This document shows positions 1 through 11,381 of a stretch of 11,381 nt of DNA, one piece after another. Made by a program: the position numbers and the translations under genes. Source of the stretch: an uncultured Candidatus Saccharibacteria bacterium (GTDB taxonomy: Bacteria; Patescibacteriota; Minisyncoccia; Phycocordibacterales; UBA12088); the NCBI GenBank assembly GCA_964568345.1, contig CAZMPG010000033.1, forward strand, positions 1 to 11,381, given 5' to 3'. The notes under the pieces are model-generated. The model was not told where the DNA came from. It searched no databases and saw only the letters and a program-made list of their open reading frames with translations. Numbering within the stretch: the first letter of the stretch is position 1; every line of letters begins with the position of its first letter.

Positions 1-59
1 TGTATATGCCATATGACGCTAGTATAGTGCGTCCAAGCTATTGAACCATTACGACTGAC

Positions 60-88
60 TTGACATACTGATAATATTGTGTATATTA
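60..88 (+). promoter_or_regulatory. Candidate sigma70 promoter driving the small ORF/flotillin cassette
   Basis: TTGACA at 60-65 is followed by a 16-nt spacer and TATATT at 82-87. An alternative reading is a 17-nt spacer with ATATTA at 83-88, preceded by TG. The surrounding 120 bp is AT-rich, about 35-40% GC by hand count. The predicted TSS at about 94-96 gives a ~115-nt leader before the ATG at 211. Confidence 0.5.
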
Positions 89-210
89 GTCATAGTTCTC
101 GAGGGCATTGTATACCGAGATTTTTTGAACCTTAACATAGAGGAGGAATTACGATTGAAAACGTAAGACTGAAAGGCTTCGTTATCGGCTCTGACAGAGT
201 CGGTGACGAT

Positions 211-390
211 ATGGTTTGGAAGGTTCGAGTCAACGATAAAACTAACGGGCTTCACTGGAAAAAGTTTGAAGTTGCCTCCGTTCACGGAGGTATTCAGCTT
301 GCCAAGGGGCTTGAGGTTGAGTTTTTGCTCGGCAACTTCCTGAAAGGCGGATATTCTGTCCAAAAGGCCGTGGACGTCACAATCCTGTGA
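211..390 (+). CDS. Small hypothetical protein (59 aa) upstream of the flotillin gene, possibly 78 aa if initiated at the rare ATT at 154
   Basis: Not in the ORF track, which lists only ORFs of 60 aa or more. ATG at 211 is preceded by GGTGA 5 nt upstream, and the TGA stop is at 388-390. The frame is open back to TAA at 133-135. AGGAGG at 141-146 lies 7 nt before the in-frame ATT at 154. The same SD also sits 8 nt before an out-of-frame TTG (155) that opens a 3-codon ORF, TTG AAA ACG TAA. The product, MVWKVRVNDKTNGLHWKKFEVASVHGGIQLAKGLEVEFLLGNFLKGGYSVQKAVDVTIL, is beta-rich, basic and has no TM segment. It ends 32 nt before the flotillin ATG on the same strand. Confidence 0.4.
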   Translation: MVWKVRVNDKTNGLHWKKFEVASVHGGIQLAKGLEVEFLLGNFLKGGYSVQKAVDVTIL

Positions 391-422
391 CGACACACAA
401 CAGACACAAAGATAGGTGACTC

Positions 423-1808
423 ATGTTAGATATTCCCTTCTTGTCGGTCGGACTCACTCTGGTCGGCATCCTGTTCGTTCTTACCATCATTCTGGCGATC
501 CTCTTCCGCAAGGTCGTGAGCACTAACATGGTGCATATCGTCCAGAGTAGCAGTAAGACCAGGCCCTACGGTACCAACCTCAACGGCGGCAACGTCTATT
601 ACCGTTGGCCAAGCTGGATCCCGAAGTTCGGGGTCACTGTCATCGAACTTCCCGTGTCAAACTTCAATCGTGGCCTCAAAAACTACGAAGCGTATGACAA
701 GGACCGGGTACCGTTCATGGTCGACGTTACGGCGTTCTTTCGAATCGCTGATACAGCGCGCGCTGCACAGCGTGTAGCGAGCATGGCAGACCTCAACGAG
801 CAGCTGGACTTGATCGTTCAAGGTGCTGTTCGTAAGGTGCTTGCCTCTGACGTTATCGACAAGATCATGCTCGAGCGCGCACAGTTCGGTAGCCTCTTCA
901 CTAACGAGGTCACCGAACAACTCGCCGAGTGGGGTGTGGAGCCTGTCAAGGCCATGGAGCTCATGGATATCCGCGACAGTAGCCACGACAGCCGCGTCAT
1001 TGCCAACATCATGGCGAAGAAGAAGTCTCACATCGAGATGGAAAGCCGGAGGGAAGTGGCTGAAAACATGCGCGCTGCCGAAATGGCAGAAATCACTGCC
1101 CGTCGTGAAGTCGACATCCAACGCCAGCAGGCCGAACAGGCTGTCGGTGAACGGACGGCCGAGAAGGAAAAGGTCGTCGGTATTGCGCAGCAGAAGGCGG
1201 CGCAGGAGGTAAAAACCGAAGAAGCCAACACTAAAGCCAAGGAAATGGCAGTCGTCAAAGTCGGTCAGGTGCAACAAGCCGAAATCGACCGCGACGCGGC
1301 CATTGTCGCTGCTGACCAGCAACGCGAGGTAGCCATCCGTGAAGCAGACGGCAAGCTCGAAGCTGCTAAGCGTGAGGCCGAGGGTGTGCGAGTGAACGGT
1401 GTCGCAAGGGGTGAGGCTGAACAGGCGATTCTCATGGCACCGGTCAATGCCCAAATCGCTCTGGCGGAGAAGATCGCTTCGTTGCCCGAGTATCAGGAAT
1501 ACCTGCGGGCTATCGAGGCGATCGGAGCCTATCGGACGGTAGGTAGCGAGCAAGCAAAGGCATTGCAGTCGGCCGACGTCAAAGTCATCTCCAACGCCGG
1601 CAAACCTGGCGAAGGGATGACCAACGTCATGGACCTGTTCACCGCGAGCGGTGGTACCAATCTGGCCTCGGCGGTCGAAGCGTTTGCGCAGAGCCCGCTC
1701 GGCAAGTCCATCGTAGGCAAGCTGACCAGTCCTGCTTCGGCCAATGTCACTGACGCTCCGGCCGAGCTGCAACCTGCTGAAGAAGGCGGGCGAGGCTCGA
1801 AGAAGTAA
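423..1808 (+). CDS. Flotillin-like SPFH/band-7 membrane protein (FloT/YuaG/YqiK family)
   Basis: 461-aa ORF. It has an N-terminal hydrophobic anchor (LSVGLTLVGILFVLTIILAILF). An SPFH core follows (…VPFMVDVTAFFRIAD…). Then comes a long Glu/Ala/Gln-rich coiled-coil 'flotillin' region (AEMAEITARREVDIQRQQAEQA… EAAKREAEG) and a Gly/Ser/Ala-rich C-terminal tail. AGGTGA lies 4-5 nt upstream of the ATG. GC is about 55%, below that of the flanking core genes. Confidence 0.9.
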   Translation: MLDIPFLSVGLTLVGILFVLTIILAILFRKVVSTNMVHIVQSSSKTRPYGTNLNGGNVYYRWPSWIPKFGVTVIELPVSNFNRGLKNYEAYDKDRVPFMVDVTAFFRIADTARAAQRVASMADLNEQLDLIVQGAVRKVLASDVIDKIMLERAQFGSLFTNEVTEQLAEWGVEPVKAMELMDIRDSSHDSRVIANIMAKKKSHIEMESRREVAENMRAAEMAEITARREVDIQRQQAEQAVGERTAEKEKVVGIAQQKAAQEVKTEEANTKAKEMAVVKVGQVQQAEIDRDAAIVAADQQREVAIREADGKLEAAKREAEGVRVNGVARGEAEQAILMAPVNAQIALAEKIASLPEYQEYLRAIEAIGAYRTVGSEQAKALQSADVKVISNAGKPGEGMTNVMDLFTASGGTNLASAVEAFAQSPLGKSIVGKLTSPASANVTDAPAELQPAEEGGRGSKK

Positions 1809-1831
1809 CCCCCCCATCCTCTAACCTGGCC

Positions 1832-1877
1832 AAGTCCCTGGGTACTCGCAAGAGTGCTCGGGGACTTTTCTTTCTTG
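1832..1877 (+). terminator. Rho-independent terminator of the flotillin cassette
   Basis: AAGTCCC…(GTACTCGCAAGAGTGCTC)…GGGGACTT forms an imperfect stem-loop. TTTTCTTTCTT follows immediately. The element lies 24 nt after the flotillin stop. Confidence 0.6.
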
Positions 1878-2098
1878 CATGAATTAAGTATGCCATTCAA
1901 AATAAACACTACAATTACCGTGGCATGATCGTATAGTTCCACTCCCCATGGGACTCGTCACGCATGATGTTGACCTTGGCAAGCTCCTCATCTGATACTT
2001 TGATACACGTCTCGTACGCACGCATGTCGAGCACTGCTTTCACCGTGAGGCCGGTGGTGGTTTTCGTGTTCCCGATCAAACTCACGATTGTTGCAACT

Positions 2099-2131
2099 GA
2101 ACACCCCTCGGCTATAAGCCGAGGGGTGTTC
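2099..2131. terminator. Perfect 15-bp stem / 3-nt loop hairpin at the prfA 3' end and the island boundary (U-tract-less terminator candidate)
   Basis: GAACACCCCTCGGCT-ATA-AGCCGAGGGGTGTTC. The right arm overlaps the prfA stop codon (TGA at 2132-2130 on the minus strand). No T-run follows on either strand. The element coincides with the GC jump between the island and the core. Confidence 0.4.
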
Positions 2132-3134
2132 AGTCCTCTCCGGATTCGTCTCCTGCCCCACTGGCGTCCTCGTGCGCCGCAGCGTCCCGGAGCGCAACGA
2201 GTATCGGTTCGATGGTACCGGCAAAAATACCCTCGATATTGTGCCAACTTTCCTTGATACGGTGGTCGGTGACGCGGTCCTGGAGCACGTTGTACGTCCG
2301 GATTTTCTCGCTCCGATCGCCGGTACCGATCTGGTCTTTCCGCTTCGAGGCGTATGCGCGCGCCTCCTCCTCTTCTTTCTGCTCGGCGAGCTTCGCGATG
2401 AGGTGGCGCATCGCCTTCTCGCGGTTCGCCTGCTGAGTTCGTTCTGAGGTGCAACGTACGTCGACACCTGTTGGTAGGTGGATGAGGCGCACCGCTGTCT
2501 CGACCTTGTTCACGTTCTGCCCCCCTGCCCCGCCGGAGCGGGAAAACTCCATCGCAATATCTGCCGGATTCAGCTCAATGGATGTCTTCTTGCGGAGGGG
2601 GAGGATGGCGACCGATGCGGTCGAGGTGTGGATGCGGCCCGCTTTCTCGGTCGCGGGGATGCGCTGGATGCGGTGCACGCCCGTTTCGTGCTGGAGGAGG
2701 CGGTAGACGTCTTTCCCCCGAATCTCGAAGGATGCCTCTTTGTACCCGCCGACGTCATTTGTTGATTCGTCGAGTGTTCGCCACGACCACCCCGCATGGT
2801 CTGCGTACGCGTGGTACATAGCCGCGAGGTCGGCAGCAAAGAGGGCCGCTTCATCACCGCCAGCTCCCGCGCGAACCTCGAGAATCACTTCGTTCGGGTA
2901 TTCATCCTCCTCGGCGTCTTCTTTGAGGAGCTTGTCCATGTGTGCCTGGAGCTCGCCAAGCTGCGTCATAAGGCGTGTGATGTCAAGGTCGGCAAGCTCC
3001 CGCATCGCGGGGTCTGCGTCAGCGAGCGCTTTCGTCTCGTCGAGCTCACGGGCGAGCGCAGCGTACGACGTCGCGAGGTACGCAGTTTTCTGATTGCCGG
3101 TGTACCGAGCGAGGTCCATGGCGATGCCACACAC
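2130..3134 (-). CDS. prfA: Peptide chain release factor 1 (RF1)
   Basis: GGQ motif ([24 protein letters not shown]). The RF1-type PxT tripeptide is present ([14 protein letters not shown]), not the RF2 SPF motif. The C-terminal block [21 protein letters not shown] is also RF1-like. The track start at 3134 is GTG. An ATG 5 codons downstream, at 3119 (MDLARYTG…), is equally plausible. The gene lies 27 nt downstream of the rpmE stop, so a rpmE-prfA operon is likely. Confidence 0.88.
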
Positions 3135-3641: not shown

Positions 3642-5066
3642 TCACTCACCCAACCGCTTGAGCGTATCAATTTGCTTTTGGAAGTATGCCGCGTGGCCCA
3701 TGACGCCGTCACCGTAGAACGCGTACGCGGGGTTGCTCGCATTGCCCCAGCCGGCGAAGTAGCGGAGCGCAGCGAGGCGCTCCGCCTCGTACGTGCCCGC
3801 ACCGGCGCCGTTCTCCTTCATGAGGGTTGCTGCGGCGATGAATGCATCCTGGTTGTCCCACGGGTTCGAAGGGCCCTGCTTGCCGCGGATTACGCGGAGG
3901 CGGTCTGCCTCAGCACGGTATATCCACGGCCCTGCCCAGAACGTGTCCCAACCGAGCGACCGCGCGGTGTTGCCGCAGTCGCCGGTCACCGTGTTCACGT
4001 AGCCGCCGTAGCACGCCCACGTTGAGGGGATAAACTGCGCTGGCCCCATTGCCCCGCCCCACCCGTAGCTCGGTTTTGCGGAGACCGGCATCGTGTCGGG
4101 GTTGAGCCCGAGGTTCTTGGTGATGACCGCAAAGAGTGGCCGATCGCGCGTCGGATGCATGTCTGCCTTCCAGGATCCGTTGCCAAGGAATTCGCCGAGT
4201 CGCGTCTCCTGCTTCAAGACACCGAGGATGAGTGCGGGTCGTATACCGGTCTTTTGAGACGCGAACGTGGCGAATTCGATAGCATCACCGAGGTTGATGG
4301 CCGCGGAGCCGCGGAGCTCGAAGAGCTCGGAGCGTATCTGTGCCGCGCTCTGCTCATTGGCGGCGATGAGCTTTTGGTACCGCTGCTCTTCGCCCTTGGT
4401 AGAGGTGAGGATGCGCGCTTTCTCCTTCTCCTGATCTTTGAGGCGGCCTTGCTGGAGCACTCGGAGCGTTCGAAGCTCCTCCTCTGAAGCCTGGCGATCC
4501 TCGAGCACCGCTTTCGCGTCTGCATGCTCGCTTCGGAGCGCCACGAGCTCGTGGGTTGACTCCTGGAGCCCGGTCTTCACCGCGGCAAACGCATCAAATT
4601 CCTGGAAGAGGTCGGAGAACCGCTTCCCCGAGAGTGCAACCTCGACGAGCGAGAGTTGATCGAGCTCCGCGGTACGCCGCACAAGGCCGGCGAGCGAAGA
4701 GCGCTCTTGGTCTATTTCTTCGGTGAGCCTGAGGATAGAGGCCTCTTTATCAACGATGTCTGCCTCAAGGTTTGCGATGGCAACCTCCTGCGCCCGTATG
4801 GCGAGCTTCGCCTTCTTGATCTCTGCATCGAGGATTCCCATGTCACGCTCGAGCGTCACCCGCTCCCCCTGCTTCCCCTCCAGGAGCTTCTGCTGTTCCG
4901 CAATGAGCGACTCGAGGTGGGCAAGCTGTGCCTCCAGCTCTGCGCGCCGCGCCTGGATCTGGGCTTCGGTCGTCTGTGCGTGGAGCGGCTCCCTGCCGGA
5001 GACGCATGCAACCGCGAACACCATACCGAGCATCGCCCCACACAACACTACCGTACGAACGGACAT
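3642..5066 (-). CDS. Secreted coiled-coil protein with a C-terminal family-3 lytic transglycosylase (MltB/SLT_2-like) domain
   Basis: The signal peptide is MSVRTVVLCGAMLGMVFAVACVSG. A heptad-rich coiled-coil region of about 230 aa follows (EAQIQARRAELEAQLAHLESLIAEQQKLLE…). The C-terminal domain has LKQETRLGEF (catalytic Glu context) and PSYGWGGAMGPAQFIPSTW, which resembles the MltB SWAGAMGQxQFMPS motif. The start is taken at ATG 5066 (residue 19 of the track ORF) because the signal peptide begins there and a -10 lies just upstream. Confidence 0.8.
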   Translation of the reverse strand: MSVRTVVLCGAMLGMVFAVACVSGREPLHAQTTEAQIQARRAELEAQLAHLESLIAEQQKLLEGKQGERVTLERDMGILDAEIKKAKLAIRAQEVAIANLEADIVDKEASILRLTEEIDQERSSLAGLVRRTAELDQLSLVEVALSGKRFSDLFQEFDAFAAVKTGLQESTHELVALRSEHADAKAVLEDRQASEEELRTLRVLQQGRLKDQEKEKARILTSTKGEEQRYQKLIAANEQSAAQIRSELFELRGSAAINLGDAIEFATFASQKTGIRPALILGVLKQETRLGEFLGNGSWKADMHPTRDRPLFAVITKNLGLNPDTMPVSAKPSYGWGGAMGPAQFIPSTWACYGGYVNTVTGDCGNTARSLGWDTFWAGPWIYRAEADRLRVIRGKQGPSNPWDNQDAFIAAATLMKENGAGAGTYEAERLAALRYFAGWGNASNPAYAFYGDGVMGHAAYFQKQIDTLKRLGE

Positions 5067-5859: not shown

Positions 5860-6155
5860 GAGCTGGTACACTGGTGGGTGACGGCACGGGCCGCGTGGGT
5901 AATTGCTCACACTTTCCATAAACAGCCCGATGTCGTTGTCACTGCGAGGAGCCGACCAGCCGGGAGGCGACGAAGCAATCCAGGTATTGTGTTCGCTGGG
6001 GTACCGAAATGCTGCTTATATCATGGACTGCTTCCCGTCACGCTCTGCTCGCGGCTAAAGGCCTGCGGTCCCGCCCCGCCCGCAGACGGGGGCTCGCAGA
6101 GACAAAGTGTGAGGGGTTATGTGAGTGGACTTTATGAGCTAGCAGAGTGTAGCAT

Positions 6156-7151
6156 ATGCAACCGTTCGATTTTATCGCGATAGGCGACATTACGACCGAT
6201 GAGTTTATCCAGCTCCGCAAGGACCGCGCGATGGTGGCGAAAGACCTCGCCGGCCGCGACGTGCTCTCGATGTACTTCGGTGACAAGCTCGAGTTTGAGG
6301 GAGCGGTCAACGTGCCTGCAGTAGGTAATGCGGCGAACGCCGCGGTGTCCGCAACCCGGCTCGGCCTCGCGACGGGCCTCGTGTGCGACGTCGGCGACGA
6401 TGCGGGTGGTGAGGAGATACTCGCGTGGCTCCGCAAGGAGGGCGTCAATACGGCGTTCGTGGATGTGCAGCCCGGCAAGGAGACGAACCACCACTACGTG
6501 CTTCGCTACGGTCCGGAGCGAACCATCCTCATAAAGCATGAGACATACGACTACGTCGTGCCCGATATGGGCACCCCGACCTGGATCTACTTTTCTTCGG
6601 TTGGCGAACACGGCCTTCAGTACCACCACGACCTCGCCGCATACGTCGCAGCGCACCCCGGCACAAAGCTCGCTTTCCAGCCCGGATCGTTCCAGATACT
6701 CCTCGGCGTTGCGGCGCTCAAAGACGTGTACGATGCGTGCGAGCTCTTCTTCTGCAACAGGGAGGAGGCGCAGCAGATTCTCGGCCGCTCTGACGCGGAT
6801 CTCCCCACACTCCTCCACGGCATCGCGGACCTCGGCCCGACGATACCGGTCATCACCGACGGGCCGCGGGGGGCGTACGCGCTCGCCGAGGATGGGGTGT
6901 GGCACATGCCGATGTACCCCGACCCCGCCCCGCCAGTTGATCGCACCGGCGCCGGTGATGCATTCGCGTCAACATTCACCGCAGCGCTCGCGCTCGGCCT
7001 CGACGTACCGACTGCGCTTCGCTGGGGCCCCATCAACTCGATGTCGGTGGTGCAGAAGATCGGGGCACAGGAGGGGCTTTTGACCCGCGCGGCGCTCGAA
7101 GCGTACCTCGCGCAGGCACCCGCCGATTACGTAGCGCGGAAGGTTGCGTAG
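6156..7151 (+). CDS. PfkB-family carbohydrate/nucleoside kinase (ribokinase-like)
   Basis: The N-terminal motif is FDFIAIGDITTDEF. The Gly-rich sugar-binding region is VPAVGNAANAA. The C-terminal anion-hole motif is DRTGAGDAFASTF. The protein is 331 aa. Substrate cannot be assigned from sequence. Confidence 0.85.
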   Translation: MQPFDFIAIGDITTDEFIQLRKDRAMVAKDLAGRDVLSMYFGDKLEFEGAVNVPAVGNAANAAVSATRLGLATGLVCDVGDDAGGEEILAWLRKEGVNTAFVDVQPGKETNHHYVLRYGPERTILIKHETYDYVVPDMGTPTWIYFSSVGEHGLQYHHDLAAYVAAHPGTKLAFQPGSFQILLGVAALKDVYDACELFFCNREEAQQILGRSDADLPTLLHGIADLGPTIPVITDGPRGAYALAEDGVWHMPMYPDPAPPVDRTGAGDAFASTFTAALALGLDVPTALRWGPINSMSVVQKIGAQEGLLTRAALEAYLAQAPADYVARKVA

Positions 7152-7178
7152 AGGGCGTAGTCTGGTCTGCGGGTGAGG

Positions 7179-7484
7179 CTATGAAGCGCGCTGCGTGAGG
7201 GTGAGGAGCGCCTCGAACGAATCGTCCGGCGCGGCTTTGTTGCGCTTCTCGTGGCCACACGCGACGCAGCGGTGCGTGATGGTCCGCCCGTCGCCGCAAA
7301 GCTCAATCGCCACAGGCTCCATCATGCCGCTGCAGCGCGCGAGCCGATCGCCCGGGAACACATCCACATGCCTGCTCCACAGGCATGTGGGGCAGTGGTT
7401 CGTATACCCGTTCCCAACCACTGCCCCGCCGCAGTGGCCGCAGATAAAGTCTTCGCGGGTGCGGGTGAAGCGGGGGGTTGGCAT
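7179..7484 (-). CDS. RNHCP-domain zinc-ribbon protein (uncharacterised family)
   Basis: FICGHCGGAVVGNGYTNHCPTCLWSRHVD contains the eponymous RNHCP motif (here TNHCP) plus CxxC pairs (CGHC, CPTC, CVAC). The ATG at 7484 lies 4 nt after the rdgB stop, suggesting coupling. The track start at 7538 would overlap rdgB by 50 nt. Confidence 0.7.
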   Translation of the reverse strand: MPTPRFTRTREDFICGHCGGAVVGNGYTNHCPTCLWSRHVDVFPGDRLARCSGMMEPVAIELCGDGRTITHRCVACGHEKRNKAAPDDSFEALLTLTQRAS

Positions 7485-7488
7485 ACGC

Positions 7489-8046
7489 CTACGCACGTGC
7501 CTCCGCGCTTTGGTGCAAAAACGTCCGCAATTTCTCAACCGCGATACGCCTCATGCTCACGCTGTTCTTTTCAGTGAACGTCATCTCAGCAAATGTCCGA
7601 TCGTGCCCATCAGGCTGGAAGATCACGTCCCAGCCGAAACCCGACACCCCCGCCCGGACGGGCACGATAGTGCCGGGAACCACACCCTCAAAAAACGCTA
7701 TGTCGTCTCGAGACCTAGCATACCCGATGATCGTCTTTGCCTCTGCCCTCCTATTGCCCAGTCTCTCGACTATGTCCACGAGGCCGCCGGTGCCAATAGT
7801 GGCGAGGAACCACTTGATGAGCGGGCCCGGCAGACCCTTGAGGCTCTCGAGGTAGAGCGAGGTGTCCTCGATGATGCATGCGCCGTCCCGGTGGCGCAGT
7901 GCCTCGAGCAGCTTCGCCCGGACCACGTTTCTCGCGTCCACGTCCTGGATCTCTGGCAGGTCAATATCCACCTGTTCAACCTCGCCGCCGAGTATAGCCG
8001 CTACCTCCTCGAACTTATTCCGATTGCCGGTGATAAAGGAGAGCAT
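7489..8046 (-). CDS. rdgB: Non-canonical purine NTP pyrophosphatase (RdgB/Ham1 ITPase family)
   Basis: LSFITGNRNKFEEV is the family N-terminal signature. The protein is 185 aa. Other family features include FAEMTFTEKNSVSMRRIAVEKL. Confidence 0.85.
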   Translation of the reverse strand: MLSFITGNRNKFEEVAAILGGEVEQVDIDLPEIQDVDARNVVRAKLLEALRHRDGACIIEDTSLYLESLKGLPGPLIKWFLATIGTGGLVDIVERLGNRRAEAKTIIGYARSRDDIAFFEGVVPGTIVPVRAGVSGFGWDVIFQPDGHDRTFAEMTFTEKNSVSMRRIAVEKLRTFLHQSAEARA

Positions 8047-8057
8047 GGGATGGAGCA

Positions 8058-8210
8058 GTGGACGTTACAGGACTCGATGCCTACCGCATCAGTACACCTT
8101 GTGGCTCGTCTGGTTCGTGCTGCGGCACTCCCCAACAAGGCTCACAAGGTTTTCGAGTCCGCGCGACGCTTTTCTGCGAAAAGCTGCGCGTAACGTCCGC
8201 AGCTCGTCGC
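8058..8210 (-). other. Degenerate tRNA-Val-derived copy / recombination scar, bounded by a 20-nt perfect direct repeat of the tRNA 3' end
   Basis: 8058-8077 GTGGACGTTACAGGACTCGA is identical to 8226-8245, which is the tRNA-Val 3' acceptor/T-stem. 8187-8204 (GCGCGTAACGTCCGCAGC) resembles the tRNA 5' end (GAGCTAAACGTCCGCAAC). On the minus strand the copy reads GGACGTT-AC-GCGC…GCGC…CATCGAGTCCTGTAACGTCCA, with about 80 extra nt and no intact anticodon arm. A plus-orientation T-arm-like GGTTTTCGAGTCC is also present at 8149-8161. Confidence 0.4.
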
Positions 8211-8713: not shown

Positions 8714-10054
8714 TTAGGCTGATAACTCTACTGTAAAGGTGGTGCCTTTGCCAAGGGCGCTCGTGAATTGGAGTGAGCCACCGAGCCCCTCGGCGAGTGC
8801 TTTACACATGTAGAGGCCGATACCATTGCCGTTTGCCTCCATTGCCTGCGCATTCGTTGCGCGGTAGAGCTTCGAGAATATCTTCCCCTGCTCCTCCGGC
8901 GGTATGCCGATACCGGTGTCGCGCACGCTGATAGTGGCGCGTGCGCGAGACACCGCGAGCGTAAGCCCGATCTCACCACCCTGCGGCGTGTAGCGCACCG
9001 CGTTCGAGAGGAGGTTCTGCACAATGACGCGCACCATTCTCCCGTCGGTGTCGAGGGTGGCTGCTTCGGGGAGCTCGACATGCAGGGTGAGCGCCTTCTC
9101 GCGTGCGGCAGCATCGAGCTCCTCGATGACGCCGCGCACCACCGGCACAATATCCGTCGTCGCACGCTCAATCTTGACCCGCCCCATTTCGATGCGCGAG
9201 AGGTTGAGAAAGGTCCCCACGAGGTCAATCATGTCCTCGTTGCGCCGATACATCTTGCGGAGGTATCCCTCTATTTCCGCCTCGAGCTTGTCTTTGCGGC
9301 GGGTGAGGAGGAAGTCCATGTACCACTTCATATTGGCAAGCGGTGCGCGGAGCTGGTGGCTCGCGAGCGAGAGGAATTCCGTCTTGATGCGCTCGAGCTC
9401 TTTCTGCTCATGGATGTCAACGAGCGTGACGAGGCTCGATCTCTCCTGGCCACCGGGCACGGTGAGGTCTTCGATAGATACGAGCGTCCACCGCCGCTGG
9501 CCATCGCCATGGGTGACGAGGAGCTCCTTCTGCTCTATCGGCAGGCGGCGGCTGACGCGCTCCGCGTACATGGCGAGCTCGTCGTCGTGCTCGGGGAGGG
9601 AGAAGTACGAAAAGAGCTCCTTCCCCGCGAGTCCCTCCTCGGTGGTGCCGAAGAAGCGAAGCGCTGCTTTATTGGGGCGCTTGATAGTACTCCCTTCAAG
9701 GAGGAGGTAGGGCACGGGACTGAGTTCATAGAAGCGGCGGAATTGCTCCTTTGAGAAGGATATATCCCGCGAGAGCGTGTACGCGAGCCGCCGTGCCTGC
9801 GCGCGCAGCGAGATGAGGAGGTACACGAGGAGCGCAACGACGAACGCGAATGCCGTGCCGACGACAAGGAGGCGATCGAGCTCGCTCCGCACCATGAGTG
9901 TCGCGTACGCAGCGTCGTTTATCGTGAGCGCGTACCGTGTGTCGTAGTACTGCCAGACATACACCACCCCGAGCCCGAGCACCACAAATGCGCAGAGAGC
10001 AGCGATGAGCCTCATGTAGGAGTAGTATAGCACTGCGCGGATCCGGTACGCCAT
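8714..10054 (-). CDS. Sensor histidine kinase (2 TM, PAS-like, HisKA, HATPase_c)
   Basis: The H-box is LASHQLRAPLANMKWYMDFL. The N-box is QNLLSNAVRYT. The G-boxes are DTGIGIP and GIGLYMCKALAEGLGG. Two hydrophobic helices flank a short loop. The start is taken at ATG 10054 (MAYRIRAV…, with GGTGTGA upstream). An intrinsic terminator at 10133-10160 lies inside the longer TTG-initiated track ORF. Confidence 0.8.
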   Translation of the reverse strand: MAYRIRAVLYYSYMRLIAALCAFVVLGLGVVYVWQYYDTRYALTINDAAYATLMVRSELDRLLVVGTAFAFVVALLVYLLISLRAQARRLAYTLSRDISFSKEQFRRFYELSPVPYLLLEGSTIKRPNKAALRFFGTTEEGLAGKELFSYFSLPEHDDELAMYAERVSRRLPIEQKELLVTHGDGQRRWTLVSIEDLTVPGGQERSSLVTLVDIHEQKELERIKTEFLSLASHQLRAPLANMKWYMDFLLTRRKDKLEAEIEGYLRKMYRRNEDMIDLVGTFLNLSRIEMGRVKIERATTDIVPVVRGVIEELDAAAREKALTLHVELPEAATLDTDGRMVRVIVQNLLSNAVRYTPQGGEIGLTLAVSRARATISVRDTGIGIPPEEQGKIFSKLYRATNAQAMEANGNGIGLYMCKALAEGLGGSLQFTSALGKGTTFTVELSA

Positions 10055-10180: not shown

Positions 10181-11077
10181 TTAGAATGCGTACTGGAATC
10201 GGGCGAAGAGTGTGGCCCCGTCGTTCCCCCCACGTACAGCATCAAGGGTCGCCGATACTCCCTTGCTTCCCGTACGCCAGCCAATCCCAAGGGTCGTTTC
10301 TGTCCCGGTCGGCGCTGCGTCTACCTGCCCGTGCAGGTCTATGTTGCCCCCAAGGCGATAGGTCGCGAGTACGTATCCACCATGTGGTGACCCGTTGCCA
10401 TTGCTACCGAATAGGCCACCGCGGAATGCTACGGCTCCATCACTCCATGCCGTGTCCACACCGAAGCGGCTCAAGCGGTTGCCCTCTTGTACGGTTAGCG
10501 ACCAGCTCCATCCGCCCACCCTCCAGGTGAGCCTGCCTGACGTCTCCACACCGCGCCATGCCTCCCTGCTATCAAACGAAACCCCGGTCTTACCAGTGAT
10601 ATCGGCGACAACAGTTAGTCGCTCCGAGACATCACTCGCCACCTGTGCACCCCAGCCGTAGCTAGCAAAGGGTTTCCAGGGGTAGCGAATGGTGGTGAGA
10701 GTGTTTGGTGGCGGTAGCGCATAGCCAGCAGCCGTTACCACACGTCCCGCAGTGACTTTTGTGCCGCCCAGGTTCCCTGTCGCAAAAAGTGTCCGCAGCC
10801 AATTTGAACCAGGGTGTGAAGCGTCGACGAGTTCTACTTCAGCACCAAAACGTACCGAGGTATTGGCGTAGCCAGGAAGAATGCGAAACTTTGTGAGACC
10901 CCATTCTCCCGGACTTGACTCGACCTGCACGTAGCCTAAAAGGCTGAAGCGTGGATCGTCGAACAGAGCTGGGGACTCATCTTCGGTGGTCTCTTTCTTT
11001 CCTGGGGCCTTGGTAGGTCCACCAGCAGCGCCTGCCGACAATGCTCCCGCGATAGCGTAAGTGACGAACTGCAGCAT
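10181..11077 (-). CDS. Outer-membrane beta-barrel (porin-like) protein; start uncertain, frame open to the window edge
   Basis: The C-terminus ends …ATLFARFQYAF with a terminal Phe. The body has alternating hydrophobic strands rich in Gly/Thr/Ser/Trp/Tyr (YVLATYRLGG, TLGIGWRTG). A candidate signal peptide is MLQFVTYAIAGALSAGAAG at ATG 11077. The same frame continues without a stop through two TM-like helices to position 11381 and beyond. Confidence 0.55.
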   Translation of the reverse strand: MLQFVTYAIAGALSAGAAGGPTKAPGKKETTEDESPALFDDPRFSLLGYVQVESSPGEWGLTKFRILPGYANTSVRFGAEVELVDASHPGSNWLRTLFATGNLGGTKVTAGRVVTAAGYALPPPNTLTTIRYPWKPFASYGWGAQVASDVSERLTVVADITGKTGVSFDSREAWRGVETSGRLTWRVGGWSWSLTVQEGNRLSRFGVDTAWSDGAVAFRGGLFGSNGNGSPHGGYVLATYRLGGNIDLHGQVDAAPTGTETTLGIGWRTGSKGVSATLDAVRGGNDGATLFARFQYAF

Positions 11078-11381
11078 GCGTCGGAGCTGTTCGACTCGCA
11101 CCAGGTCCGTTGGGTATTTCCAGACCATGAAAGGCCACAGGAGTACCGCTAGAGCGATCCTCGGCAGCTCAAGCAGCACTGATGCCTCCTTGCTATGCAC
11201 GCGCACCCCGAAGAAGAGAACGGCAAACACAAGCGACCAGAGATAGCCCTGCGCGAGCAATTCGGTAGCGCGTGTCGTATCCATCTGCTCGCCCCGCAAC
11301 CGACCCTTCCTTTCAAAGGGTAGTCCGTCGTGTGAGCGCTTGTAGCTGTCACGCGCTGCTTCGAACGCGCCAGTATTACCC

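Follow-up and report, generated by a model that had tools for sequence, protein, structure and literature searches.

We have analysed a stretch of 11,381 nucleotides (nt) from an uncultured Candidatus Saccharibacteria bacterium (contig CAZMPG010000033.1, assembly GCA_964568345.1). This stretch, called the window here, appears to be a complete contig of a metagenome-assembled genome (MAG), with a GC content of about 60%. At its left end lies a cassette (59-1882), a self-contained predicted transcription unit with its own promoter and terminator, in which a small gene for an OB-fold protein (154-390) precedes a cargo gene for a membrane-anchored SPFH/Band_7 protein (423-1808). We hold with high confidence that this cassette is mobile and was acquired by horizontal gene transfer, and it is very likely that its architecture is that of a constant chassis with an exchangeable cargo. 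Overall, we consider it more likely than not that the locus is a horizontally mobile chassis-plus-cargo unit in which the OB protein may be a nucleic-acid-binding factor. The more interesting content of the locus is the exchangeable-cargo chassis itself, an unannotated OB-fold family that the cassette defines and that belongs mostly to the candidate phyla radiation (CPR), and an apparent conserved AUU start codon.

Constant modules and variable cargo

The window was compared with related loci (L-numbers) and the small protein with members of its wider family (P-numbers). When loci with differing cargo were compared by blastn, similarity was found only at 121-427 and at about 1801-1878 of the window. 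The first block runs from the leader through the small gene and the spacer to the start codon of the cargo; homology to the loci with other cargo stops at 405-427, and the 5' module is kept to within about 10 nt of the cargo start. The second corresponds to a 3' module of about 65 nt, comprising the final codons and a terminator, which can be aligned downstream of every type of cargo. The 5' box and the 3' module each occur exactly once per locus, and both modules are kept around six cargo sets.

In terms of cargo, SPFH-A (461 amino acids, aa) is present in the window, L012, L014 and L018; a 76-aa transmembrane (TM) protein together with SPFH-B (422 aa) in L002, L003 and L013; SPFH-C (659 aa) in L004-L009 and probably in L019 and L020; and SPFH-D (304 aa, HflK/C-like) in L010 and L023. 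The remaining sets are a 115-aa TM protein with a 188-aa lipoprotein (L015, L022) and a 144-aa Phage_VG64 lipoprotein (L021). Every cargo starts with a TM helix or a signal peptide. The four SPFH types showed no mutual match in BLASTP (E<1e-3), except for a marginal one between C and D over 112 residues (E about 1e-4). SPFH-B matches phrog_11908 (1e-88), SPFH-D matches phrog_200 (1.6e-51), and the L021 cargo matches Phage_VG64/phrog_478 (about 1e-58). In L002 (9990-10240) and L003 (307-537), the ATG of the 76-aa single-pass TM open reading frame (ORF) aligns with the Shine-Dalgarno (SD) sequence in the spacer of the window.

Ahead of the four SPFH types the small gene is 73-91% identical in nucleotides, and its protein is at least 64-90% identical. 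The small ORF lies immediately upstream of SPFH genes in the window, L002-L010, L012, L014, L018 and L023, and it also heads the lipoprotein cargoes of L015, L021 and L022. An earlier note, made from the letters of the window alone, had described the small protein as a non-canonical flotillin partner. It is indeed not a recognisable NfeD, but the association is not specific to SPFH proteins, as the lipoprotein cargoes show.

The 5' module has the order promoter, stem-loop, T-run, TTGAACCTTAACA box, GAGGAGGAA and then ATT-GAA-AAC; all features of the cassette described here are on the plus strand. The predicted sigma70-type promoter (60-87) consists of TTGACA (60-65), 16 nt and TATATT (82-87), matching the consensus at 11 of 12 positions. 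A promoter scan over 3.6 kb returned 3 sites where 1.1 would be expected, only this one being near-perfect; a TTGACA-17-TATAnT promoter occupies the equivalent place in 8 related loci. The leader stem-loop (97-120) begins a few nucleotides after the predicted transcription start and is followed by T6 at 121-126; a T-run follows it in five of the eight loci. Over these loci, the sequence of the stem-loop varies while the pairing is kept, with 86.7% of the cells paired and 6 of 8 pairs changed on both sides, compared with 30-40% paired in slid controls. The stem-loop of the window is a degraded version of a 9-bp stem in L012. The leader box TTGAACCTTAACA (125-137) is nearly invariant in the alignment of the 5' module. 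Some loci have it in another reading frame or with a stop codon inside it, and the conservation is therefore that of a nucleotide and not of a coding sequence. The SD sequence GAGGAGG (140-146, with AGGAGG at 141-146) precedes the small gene, and a 32-nt spacer, CACACAACAG...ACAAA (391-422), carries AGGTGA (414-419) and closes the module at the limit of blastn homology. The textbook sigma70 and SD signals of the earlier note were thus recovered.

No Rfam family was found in the leader (at the gathering threshold or at E<=1), the sole hits being spurious and located on a palindrome at prfA. We also considered whether the block 121-427 is a non-coding RNA or riboswitch; for the ORF this was ruled out by its codon-position bias and by dN/dS values of 0.06-0.34.

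The 3' module (1800-1882) forms the right edge of the cassette and contains the last two codons of the cargo with the TAA stop, a box, a terminator and a T-rich tail, as seen from a terminator scan and the alignment. Its parts across loci are NAG-MAG-TAA, the CCTCTAACC box (1818-1826 in the window), which aligns behind every cargo type, and the hairpin AAGTCCCCGAG...CTCGGGGC with a T-run. The terminator hairpin with its T-rich tail (1832-1867), which the earlier note did not mention, and the promoter are predicted, conserved features of the cassette. A 'CCTYTAAC' motif common to the 5' and 3' boxes was considered as a protein site and discarded; the 5' box misfits it, and a single match is within chance.

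The cargo of the window (423-1808) matches Pfam Band_7 (PF01145) at 54.6 bits against a cut-off of 23.6 (E 1.9e-14) and has a single N-terminal TM segment at about residues 6-28. Compared with its counterpart in L018, it shows 89% amino acid identity, a dS of 0.43 and a dN/dS of 0.15, indicating purifying selection. The gene had been named a flotillin. An SPFH/Band_7 domain and a TM anchor are present; in a search of PDB sequences the closest solved relatives are the PH stomatin and QmcA and not flotillin, and no NCBIfam model matched. Its length and long Glu/Ala-rich region are flotillin-like as read from the sequence, and depositors have labelled its phage homologues 'flotillin' or 'SPFH domain-containing'. 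We conclude that 'flotillin' is a loose label and that the Pfam Band_7 assignment alone holds. In total, 51 phage records match SPFH-A, with E values down to 1e-126, and proteins of Xanthomonas and Brevundimonas jumbo phages and of Vibrio Thalassavirus are 46-50% identical to it over the full length. Beside the phage homologues of phages X1, Kabachok and Pontus, neither an OB nor an NfeD neighbour was found.

The small OB-fold gene

The ORF at 154-390 ends with a TGA stop (388-390) and is supported by conservation. Its close homologues are few, amounting to 11 clusters among 5.8 billion sequences. Across eight loci, third codon positions vary at 58 of 78 sites and second positions at 16 of 78, with dN/dS values in the range given above; between hosts the small gene shows a dS of 0.32 and a dN/dS of 0.14. 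The extension upstream of ATG211 is kept at the protein level in distant homologues, for example as MKGFVIG or YAGFVVGCDNVG. As judged from these substitution patterns, the small ORF is a real gene under purifying selection, and it is coding upstream of ATG211.

In terms of initiation, an in-frame TAA at 133-135 of the window leaves no ATG, GTG or TTG ahead of the conserved part. ATT154 lies 7 nt past AGGAGG and is present in 10 of 10 loci examined. When 40 sequences of the wider family are aligned, their initiator methionine stands a few residues before R-x-x-G-[FY]-V, which is where ATT154 falls. Because ATT154 is the sole shared candidate and coincides with the family-wide methionine position, we infer a conserved AUU start at 154. 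This start is overlapped by an out-of-frame mini-ORF, TTG-AAA-ACR-TAA (155-166), which is kept at this place in all related loci, encodes Met-Lys-Thr-stop and lies 8 nt past the SD sequence. In the first 12 codons of the small gene, third-position variation is reduced. Together with the conservation of the mini-ORF, this indicates an extra constraint on the initiation region, and the UUG mini-ORF may compete with the AUU start or regulate it.

The protein of 78 aa has an isoelectric point (pI) of 9.1 and is predicted to be cytoplasmic, with no TM segment (highest 19-residue Kyte-Doolittle mean 0.82). Its AlphaFold2 model is a confident five-stranded barrel (pLDDT 89.8). Accordingly, the description of a soluble, beta-rich, basic protein of 59-78 aa was right in its character and its upper length, counted from ATT154, but not in the length of 59 aa. 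The modelled barrel has the five-stranded OB fold expected of NfeD and also the fold of the cold-shock domain. In Foldseek searches the best structural matches were nucleic-acid binders of the cold-shock, S1 and SSB types; against PDB and BFVD all had E>1e-3 and were generic nucleic-acid-binding OB folds only, and NfeD was absent from the top 50. The small protein gave no match in Pfam (E<=0.01), NCBIfam, PHROG or PADLOC, and a profile search of PDB sequences (E<=10) gave neither NfeD nor the cold-shock domain. A truncated NfeD was thus ruled out by sequence, TM content and fold ranking.

When 1.84 billion representatives were searched with a profile, a wider family of 138 clusters (at 50% identity) was collected at E<=1e-3; its named members are almost all Patescibacteria. 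Most of these proteins have 80-100 aa; forms of about 190 aa are common and carry an unknown C-terminal domain of about 110 aa. We looked for relatives of the small gene in phage sets, by tblastn in INPHARED and by three scans of IMG/VR, and found none, the scans giving chance matches only. A betaproteobacterial locus from a pattern scan (L017, 42% identity) was rejected as spurious, the match being on the opposite strand inside another ORF.

Insertion between prfA and the rpsB-tsf position

The composition of the cassette differs from that of the other genes in the window. The stretch 1-153 is AT-rich with a GC content of 0.373, the small gene has 0.477, the SPFH gene 0.572 and the segment 1883-2129 0.494, compared with 0.585-0.644 in the ten other genes. 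The SPFH gene thus deviates only mildly in total GC, and the contrast is clearer in GC at third codon positions (GC3), which is 0.54 in the small gene and 0.68 in the SPFH gene, compared with 0.73-0.79 in nine of the ten others. The odd composition reported earlier was therefore confirmed, whereas the 65-70% GC given for the core genes was too high, the measured range being about 59-64%. A GGAGG-type motif was found upstream of none of the ten other genes, and rpmE looks leaderless (TTGCGC-17-TACAGT, 7 nt to the ATG), in agreement with the claim that the native rpmE, transglycosylase and rplY genes are leaderless or SD-less. The SD and promoter signals of the cassette are unlike those of the host genes. 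Near the start of rplY, TTGCGC-16/17-TATACT was observed.

The window segment 59-1882, from the -35 hexamer to shortly beyond the terminator, is 88% identical in nucleotides to L012 and L014, from MAGs labelled Candidatus Nomurabacteria, and to the metagenome contig L018, and the rest of the window gave no other match to these three loci. Homology starts at 59 in all three and ends at 1882 in L012 and L018, so that the left edge of the cassette, which had been placed beyond the window, lies inside it. In the Nomurabacteria-labelled hosts, MAGs of about 38-40% GC, the flanks have 34-40% GC and the cassette 49-61% (about 55% overall). Whether the host has a high or a low GC content, the cassette thus retains a composition of its own, which upholds the horizontal acquisition proposed earlier.

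The first host gene is prfA (RF1; 2130-3134, minus strand, identified by Pfam PCRF and RF-1 and by synteny), which is convergent with the cassette. Its closest homologues are 70-73% identical, and the named ones belong to the CPR (Pacebacteria, Taylorbacteria, Patescibacteria), which suggests a CPR/Paceibacteria-like host. Two of these relatives (prfA 70% identical) share the order PfkB-rplY-SLT-rpmE-prfA, which is followed after 50-100 nt by rpsB-tsf in the same orientation. At that spot the window has a palindrome, an insertion sequence (IS) stub and the convergent cassette. The stub (1918-2100, minus strand, stop at 1915-1917) encodes the C-terminal 60 or so codons of an ISAzo13-family transposase, matching positions 249-308 of the 308 of Pfam PF07592 (E 1.1e-15); it is a remnant and not an active IS with a complete DDE transposase. 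The earlier note had placed the cassette right after prfA, which is correct as to the neighbourhood but passes over this remnant between the two. The stub terminates exactly at a perfect 18-bp palindrome (2096-2134; arms 2096-2113 and 2117-2134, with a 3-nt loop) that overlaps the prfA stop and corresponds to the hairpin noticed before. Because the relative L027 likewise has a GC-rich hairpin after prfA, the palindrome is probably the native 3' hairpin of prfA and the right limit of the inserted DNA.

The insertion site therefore lies between prfA and the position where relatives have rpsB-tsf, beside an IS remnant. The junction of cassette, IS stub and prfA recurs with 100% identity in a separate Logan assembly (window 26-2438), and an exact look-up of the SPFH protein returned only one match, a 2.4-kb Logan contig beginning at window position 26. 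No terminal inverted or direct repeats were found around the cassette of the window. The overall interpretation of the earlier note, a horizontally acquired membrane module with an unusual partner, has held up: related genomes do not have the two genes after prfA, many loci have the small ORF conserved directly ahead of an SPFH gene, and the small protein, with its confidently modelled OB fold, is not a recognisable truncated NfeD by structure or sequence.

The other copies have mobile surroundings. L012 and L014 share a 5.45-kb island of 99.4% identity with unrelated flanks (L012 4406-9849, L014 4408-9834). Inverted repeats of 214 bp (4406-4619, 7742-7956) bracket a PD-T7-1-like ORF and the cassette. 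Another inverted pair (7952-8085, 9701-9834) flanks three ORFs into which a serine recombinase gene has been broken up, and a tRNA-Ser(gct) forms the end of the island in L014. In the L014 cassette (6001-7709, CP060229.1) the reading frame is shifted where the OB gene ends and at the start and the end of the SPFH gene; L012 and L018 have nearly identical copies that are intact. The frameshifted copy is either a pseudogene or a long-read indel artefact. IS neighbours of other copies are IS3 (L002, L014) and IS66 (L023), and toxin-antitoxin neighbours are BrnT/A with PIN (L004), SocA_Panacea (L021) and DUF4258 (L019). PD-T7-5-like genes stand alongside the cassette in L012, L014, L015 and L022. 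The gene just upstream of the cassette (L015 1947-2978, L022 3-665, L014 4996-5844 on the minus strand) has matches to the PADLOC candidates PD-T7-5 (E 3.6e-11) and PD-T7-1 and to phrog_8571, and it seems to be a defence candidate of the nuclease type that accompanies the cassette.

The host part of the window, from 2130 onwards and mostly on the minus strand, contains beyond prfA the genes rpmE, an SLT-like gene, rplY, pfkB, RNHCP and Ham1, and after Ham1 a tRNA-Val, a response regulator, a PAS histidine kinase and an ORF of unknown function. The RNHCP ORF (7179-7538) and the Ham1 ORF (7489-8046) of the minus strand share 50 nt (7489-7538), and one start codon has probably been mis-assigned. 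The ORF at 10181-11299 (minus strand, 372 aa) has a GC3 of 0.60 compared with 0.73-0.79 in its neighbours and no match in Pfam or NCBIfam. Its C-terminus, ...ARFQYAF, resembles an outer-membrane beta-barrel signature, an unusual feature in a CPR genome; this ORF may be a further foreign gene.

Proposed working, rival explanations and known systems

In the working that we propose, the conserved ends would be expression signals and homology arms at once, and cargo ORFs would be swapped by recombination, as proposed for PeSL motifs and phage morons. The SPFH cargo would, by homology, probably form a membrane-anchored oligomeric scaffold. The OB protein would act on its own transcript, at the leader, the initiation region or the terminator, and would set or enable the expression of the membrane cargo. 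Considering that the OB protein is unchanged across cargoes that include exported lipoproteins, a cold-shock-like nucleic-acid binder is likelier than a cargo-specific partner of the NfeD type. We favour a nucleic-acid-binding role on the cassette's own RNA on the grounds of the cold-shock-like fold, the basic pI, a structured leader and terminator that are conserved together with the gene, and the apparent AUU start. That the protein is such an RNA-binding cis-regulator is a tentative proposal, which we would put below even odds. It is rather unlikely that the whole scheme applies, namely a plug-and-play chassis of the CPR (or of a phage or mobile element) in which membrane effectors are swapped from start to stop and the OB factor recognises the chassis RNA and autoregulates or licenses the cargo.

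Several observations weigh against the favoured reading or parts of it. In terms of RNA binding, the small protein has no match to the Pfam cold-shock domain (PF00313) and no obvious RNP1 or RNP2 motifs. The leader box segments are invariant, so that covariation supports the hairpin alone. The overlapping UUG mini-ORF could be the main initiation site instead of the AUU. Within the wider family, P0169, P0193 and P0194 join an N-terminal OB domain to one TM helix and a region of about 280 aa without a Pfam match, and such fusions would suit a partner in the membrane and a regulator tethered to it equally well. Distant OB members (40-50% identical; L016 71-1361, L035-L042) stand directly upstream of AAA ATPases and not of SPFH genes; in L016 the ATPase is CobS-like (phrog_249), and in L035 it has 673 aa and belongs to PF00004. 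As for how the cassette moves, no recombinase bounding it was found in the window. Since the small gene has no relative in IMG/VR or INPHARED, a phage origin of the chassis is an analogy only.

Three other explanations were weighed. The small OB protein might be a TM-less analogue of NfeD, a cytoplasmic subunit that docks on the SPFH oligomer or on another membrane partner, and the pair would then be a variant of the NfeD-SPFH operons for membrane scaffolds. Its place immediately upstream of SPFH genes in the window and in many loci fits this, as do the OB-TM fusions just described, and NfeD subfamilies themselves have little sequence similarity to one another (PMC2636767). However, the protein has no NfeD match among Pfam models or PDB sequences, no TM helix and no NfeD in its Foldseek top 50; nearly the same protein heads four dissimilar SPFH types, whereas NfeD trees track their partners (PMC2636767), and it also heads lipoprotein cargoes predicted to lie outside the cytoplasm (L015, L021, L022). 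We consider this explanation unlikely. Less probable still is that the cassette is a membrane-acting anti-phage or superinfection-exclusion module on CPR defence or mobile islands, with the membrane protein as effector and the OB protein as a nucleic-acid sensor. The PD-T7-5/PD-T7-1-like neighbours, the BrnT/A, PIN, SocA_Panacea and DUF4258 toxin-antitoxin neighbours and the IS elements point in this direction, and phage-type membrane or lipoprotein cargo is typical of prophage exclusion morons (PMC3594210). Yet PADLOC matched neither the small protein nor any cargo, its matches being confined to neighbouring genes in L012, L014 and L015 (PD-T7-5/PD-T7-1); SPFH proteins are not known from experiment to act in defence; and the association with these neighbours comes from a handful of short contigs.

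The region might also have been inherited vertically as a native one, or be a chimera of assembly or binning; its unusual composition would then reflect an AT-rich intergenic stretch and a coiled-coil-rich gene. The GC content of the SPFH gene is only slightly under that of the host genes, and the cassette occupies the extreme end of a short MAG contig, both of which agree with this. Nevertheless, relatives have rpsB-tsf at the equivalent position, the cassette is 88% identical in unrelated low-GC genomes that no other part of the window matches, an IS stub marks the junction, GC3 and SD usage are unlike those of the other genes in the window, and the junction is repeated in the separate Logan assembly. 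Accordingly, we regard a native or chimeric region as highly improbable.

CPR bacteria are uncultured, and very little is known of their mobile genes. The favoured chassis-plus-cargo unit, defined by sequence, crossing CPR lineages (MAGs labelled Kaiserbacteria, Nomurabacteria and Saccharibacteria) and bearing putative membrane scaffolds of phage type, gives a view of gene exchange among them. Its conserved ends are candidate expression signals for organisms in which native genes seem to lack a leader or an SD sequence. The need of SPFH proteins for an NfeD-type partner should also be rethought, as the 'partner' here appears to be part of the chassis. Should the OB protein turn out to be a regulator that binds RNA, the module would amount to a compact, natural cassette for expressing membrane proteins.

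In terms of known systems, the arrangement recalls the NfeD-SPFH operons YuaF-FloT, YqiJ-YqiK, YbbJ-QmcA and PH1510-PH1511 (Hinderhofer et al. 2009, PMC2636767). In both, a gene for a small OB barrel lies directly upstream of a gene for a membrane-anchored SPFH protein in one transcription unit, and both kinds of operon are laterally transferred. On the other hand, the OB protein of the cassette has neither the TM anchor nor the sequence of NfeD and is structurally nearer to cold-shock and S1 domains. It also does not co-diverge with its SPFH partner, one near-identical OB protein accompanying four SPFH types, and its gene heads non-SPFH cargo as well. The locus is thus not a member of the NfeD family, but its layout resembles an NfeD-SPFH operon. 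The fit to an integron gene cassette looks poor: a predicted promoter is part of the cassette, the 3' hairpin has a terminator-like T-run, and no tyrosine integrase was seen in any locus, no attC model having been run.

Cold-shock proteins of the CspA family are RNA chaperones or antiterminators with regulated 5' untranslated regions. CspE and CspC have been reported to bind mRNAs of membrane proteins (PMC4520561). The OB protein of the cassette differs from this family in having no Pfam cold-shock domain match and no recognisable RNP1 or RNP2. In E. coli, infC and pcnB are autoregulated genes initiated at AUU. The putative AUU start of the cassette behind a strong SD sequence is of the type used to hold or tune low translation; unlike those starts, it is overlapped by a conserved UUG mini-ORF.

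In organisation the cassette also resembles exchangeable units of phages. Morons are independent promoter-gene-terminator units spread by horizontal transfer (PMC3594210). The cassette likewise has its own predicted promoter and terminator, a composition unlike its flanks and varied genomic contexts, and its cargo is a membrane protein with phage homologues. It differs from morons in that its neighbours are IS elements, toxin-antitoxin genes and a serine recombinase and not phage structural genes, the small gene is absent from the phage collections searched, and a conserved second gene and conserved ends are common to different cargoes. In T4-like phages, ORFs are shuffled as modules by way of PeSL promoter/terminator motifs (PMC2839356, PMC4122927). 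These are single short composite terminator-promoter motifs in phage hyperplastic regions, whereas the cassette has a 5' module of about 370 nt with a protein-coding gene and a separate 3' module, and its loci lie in chromosome contigs of CPR bacteria. As with PeSL motifs, a conserved promoter, stem-loop and terminator bracket unrelated ORFs and would be plausible recombination points for cargo swaps. Based on these comparisons, the cassette is a moron-like or PeSL-like exchangeable unit of the mobile gene pool of the CPR/Patescibacteria.

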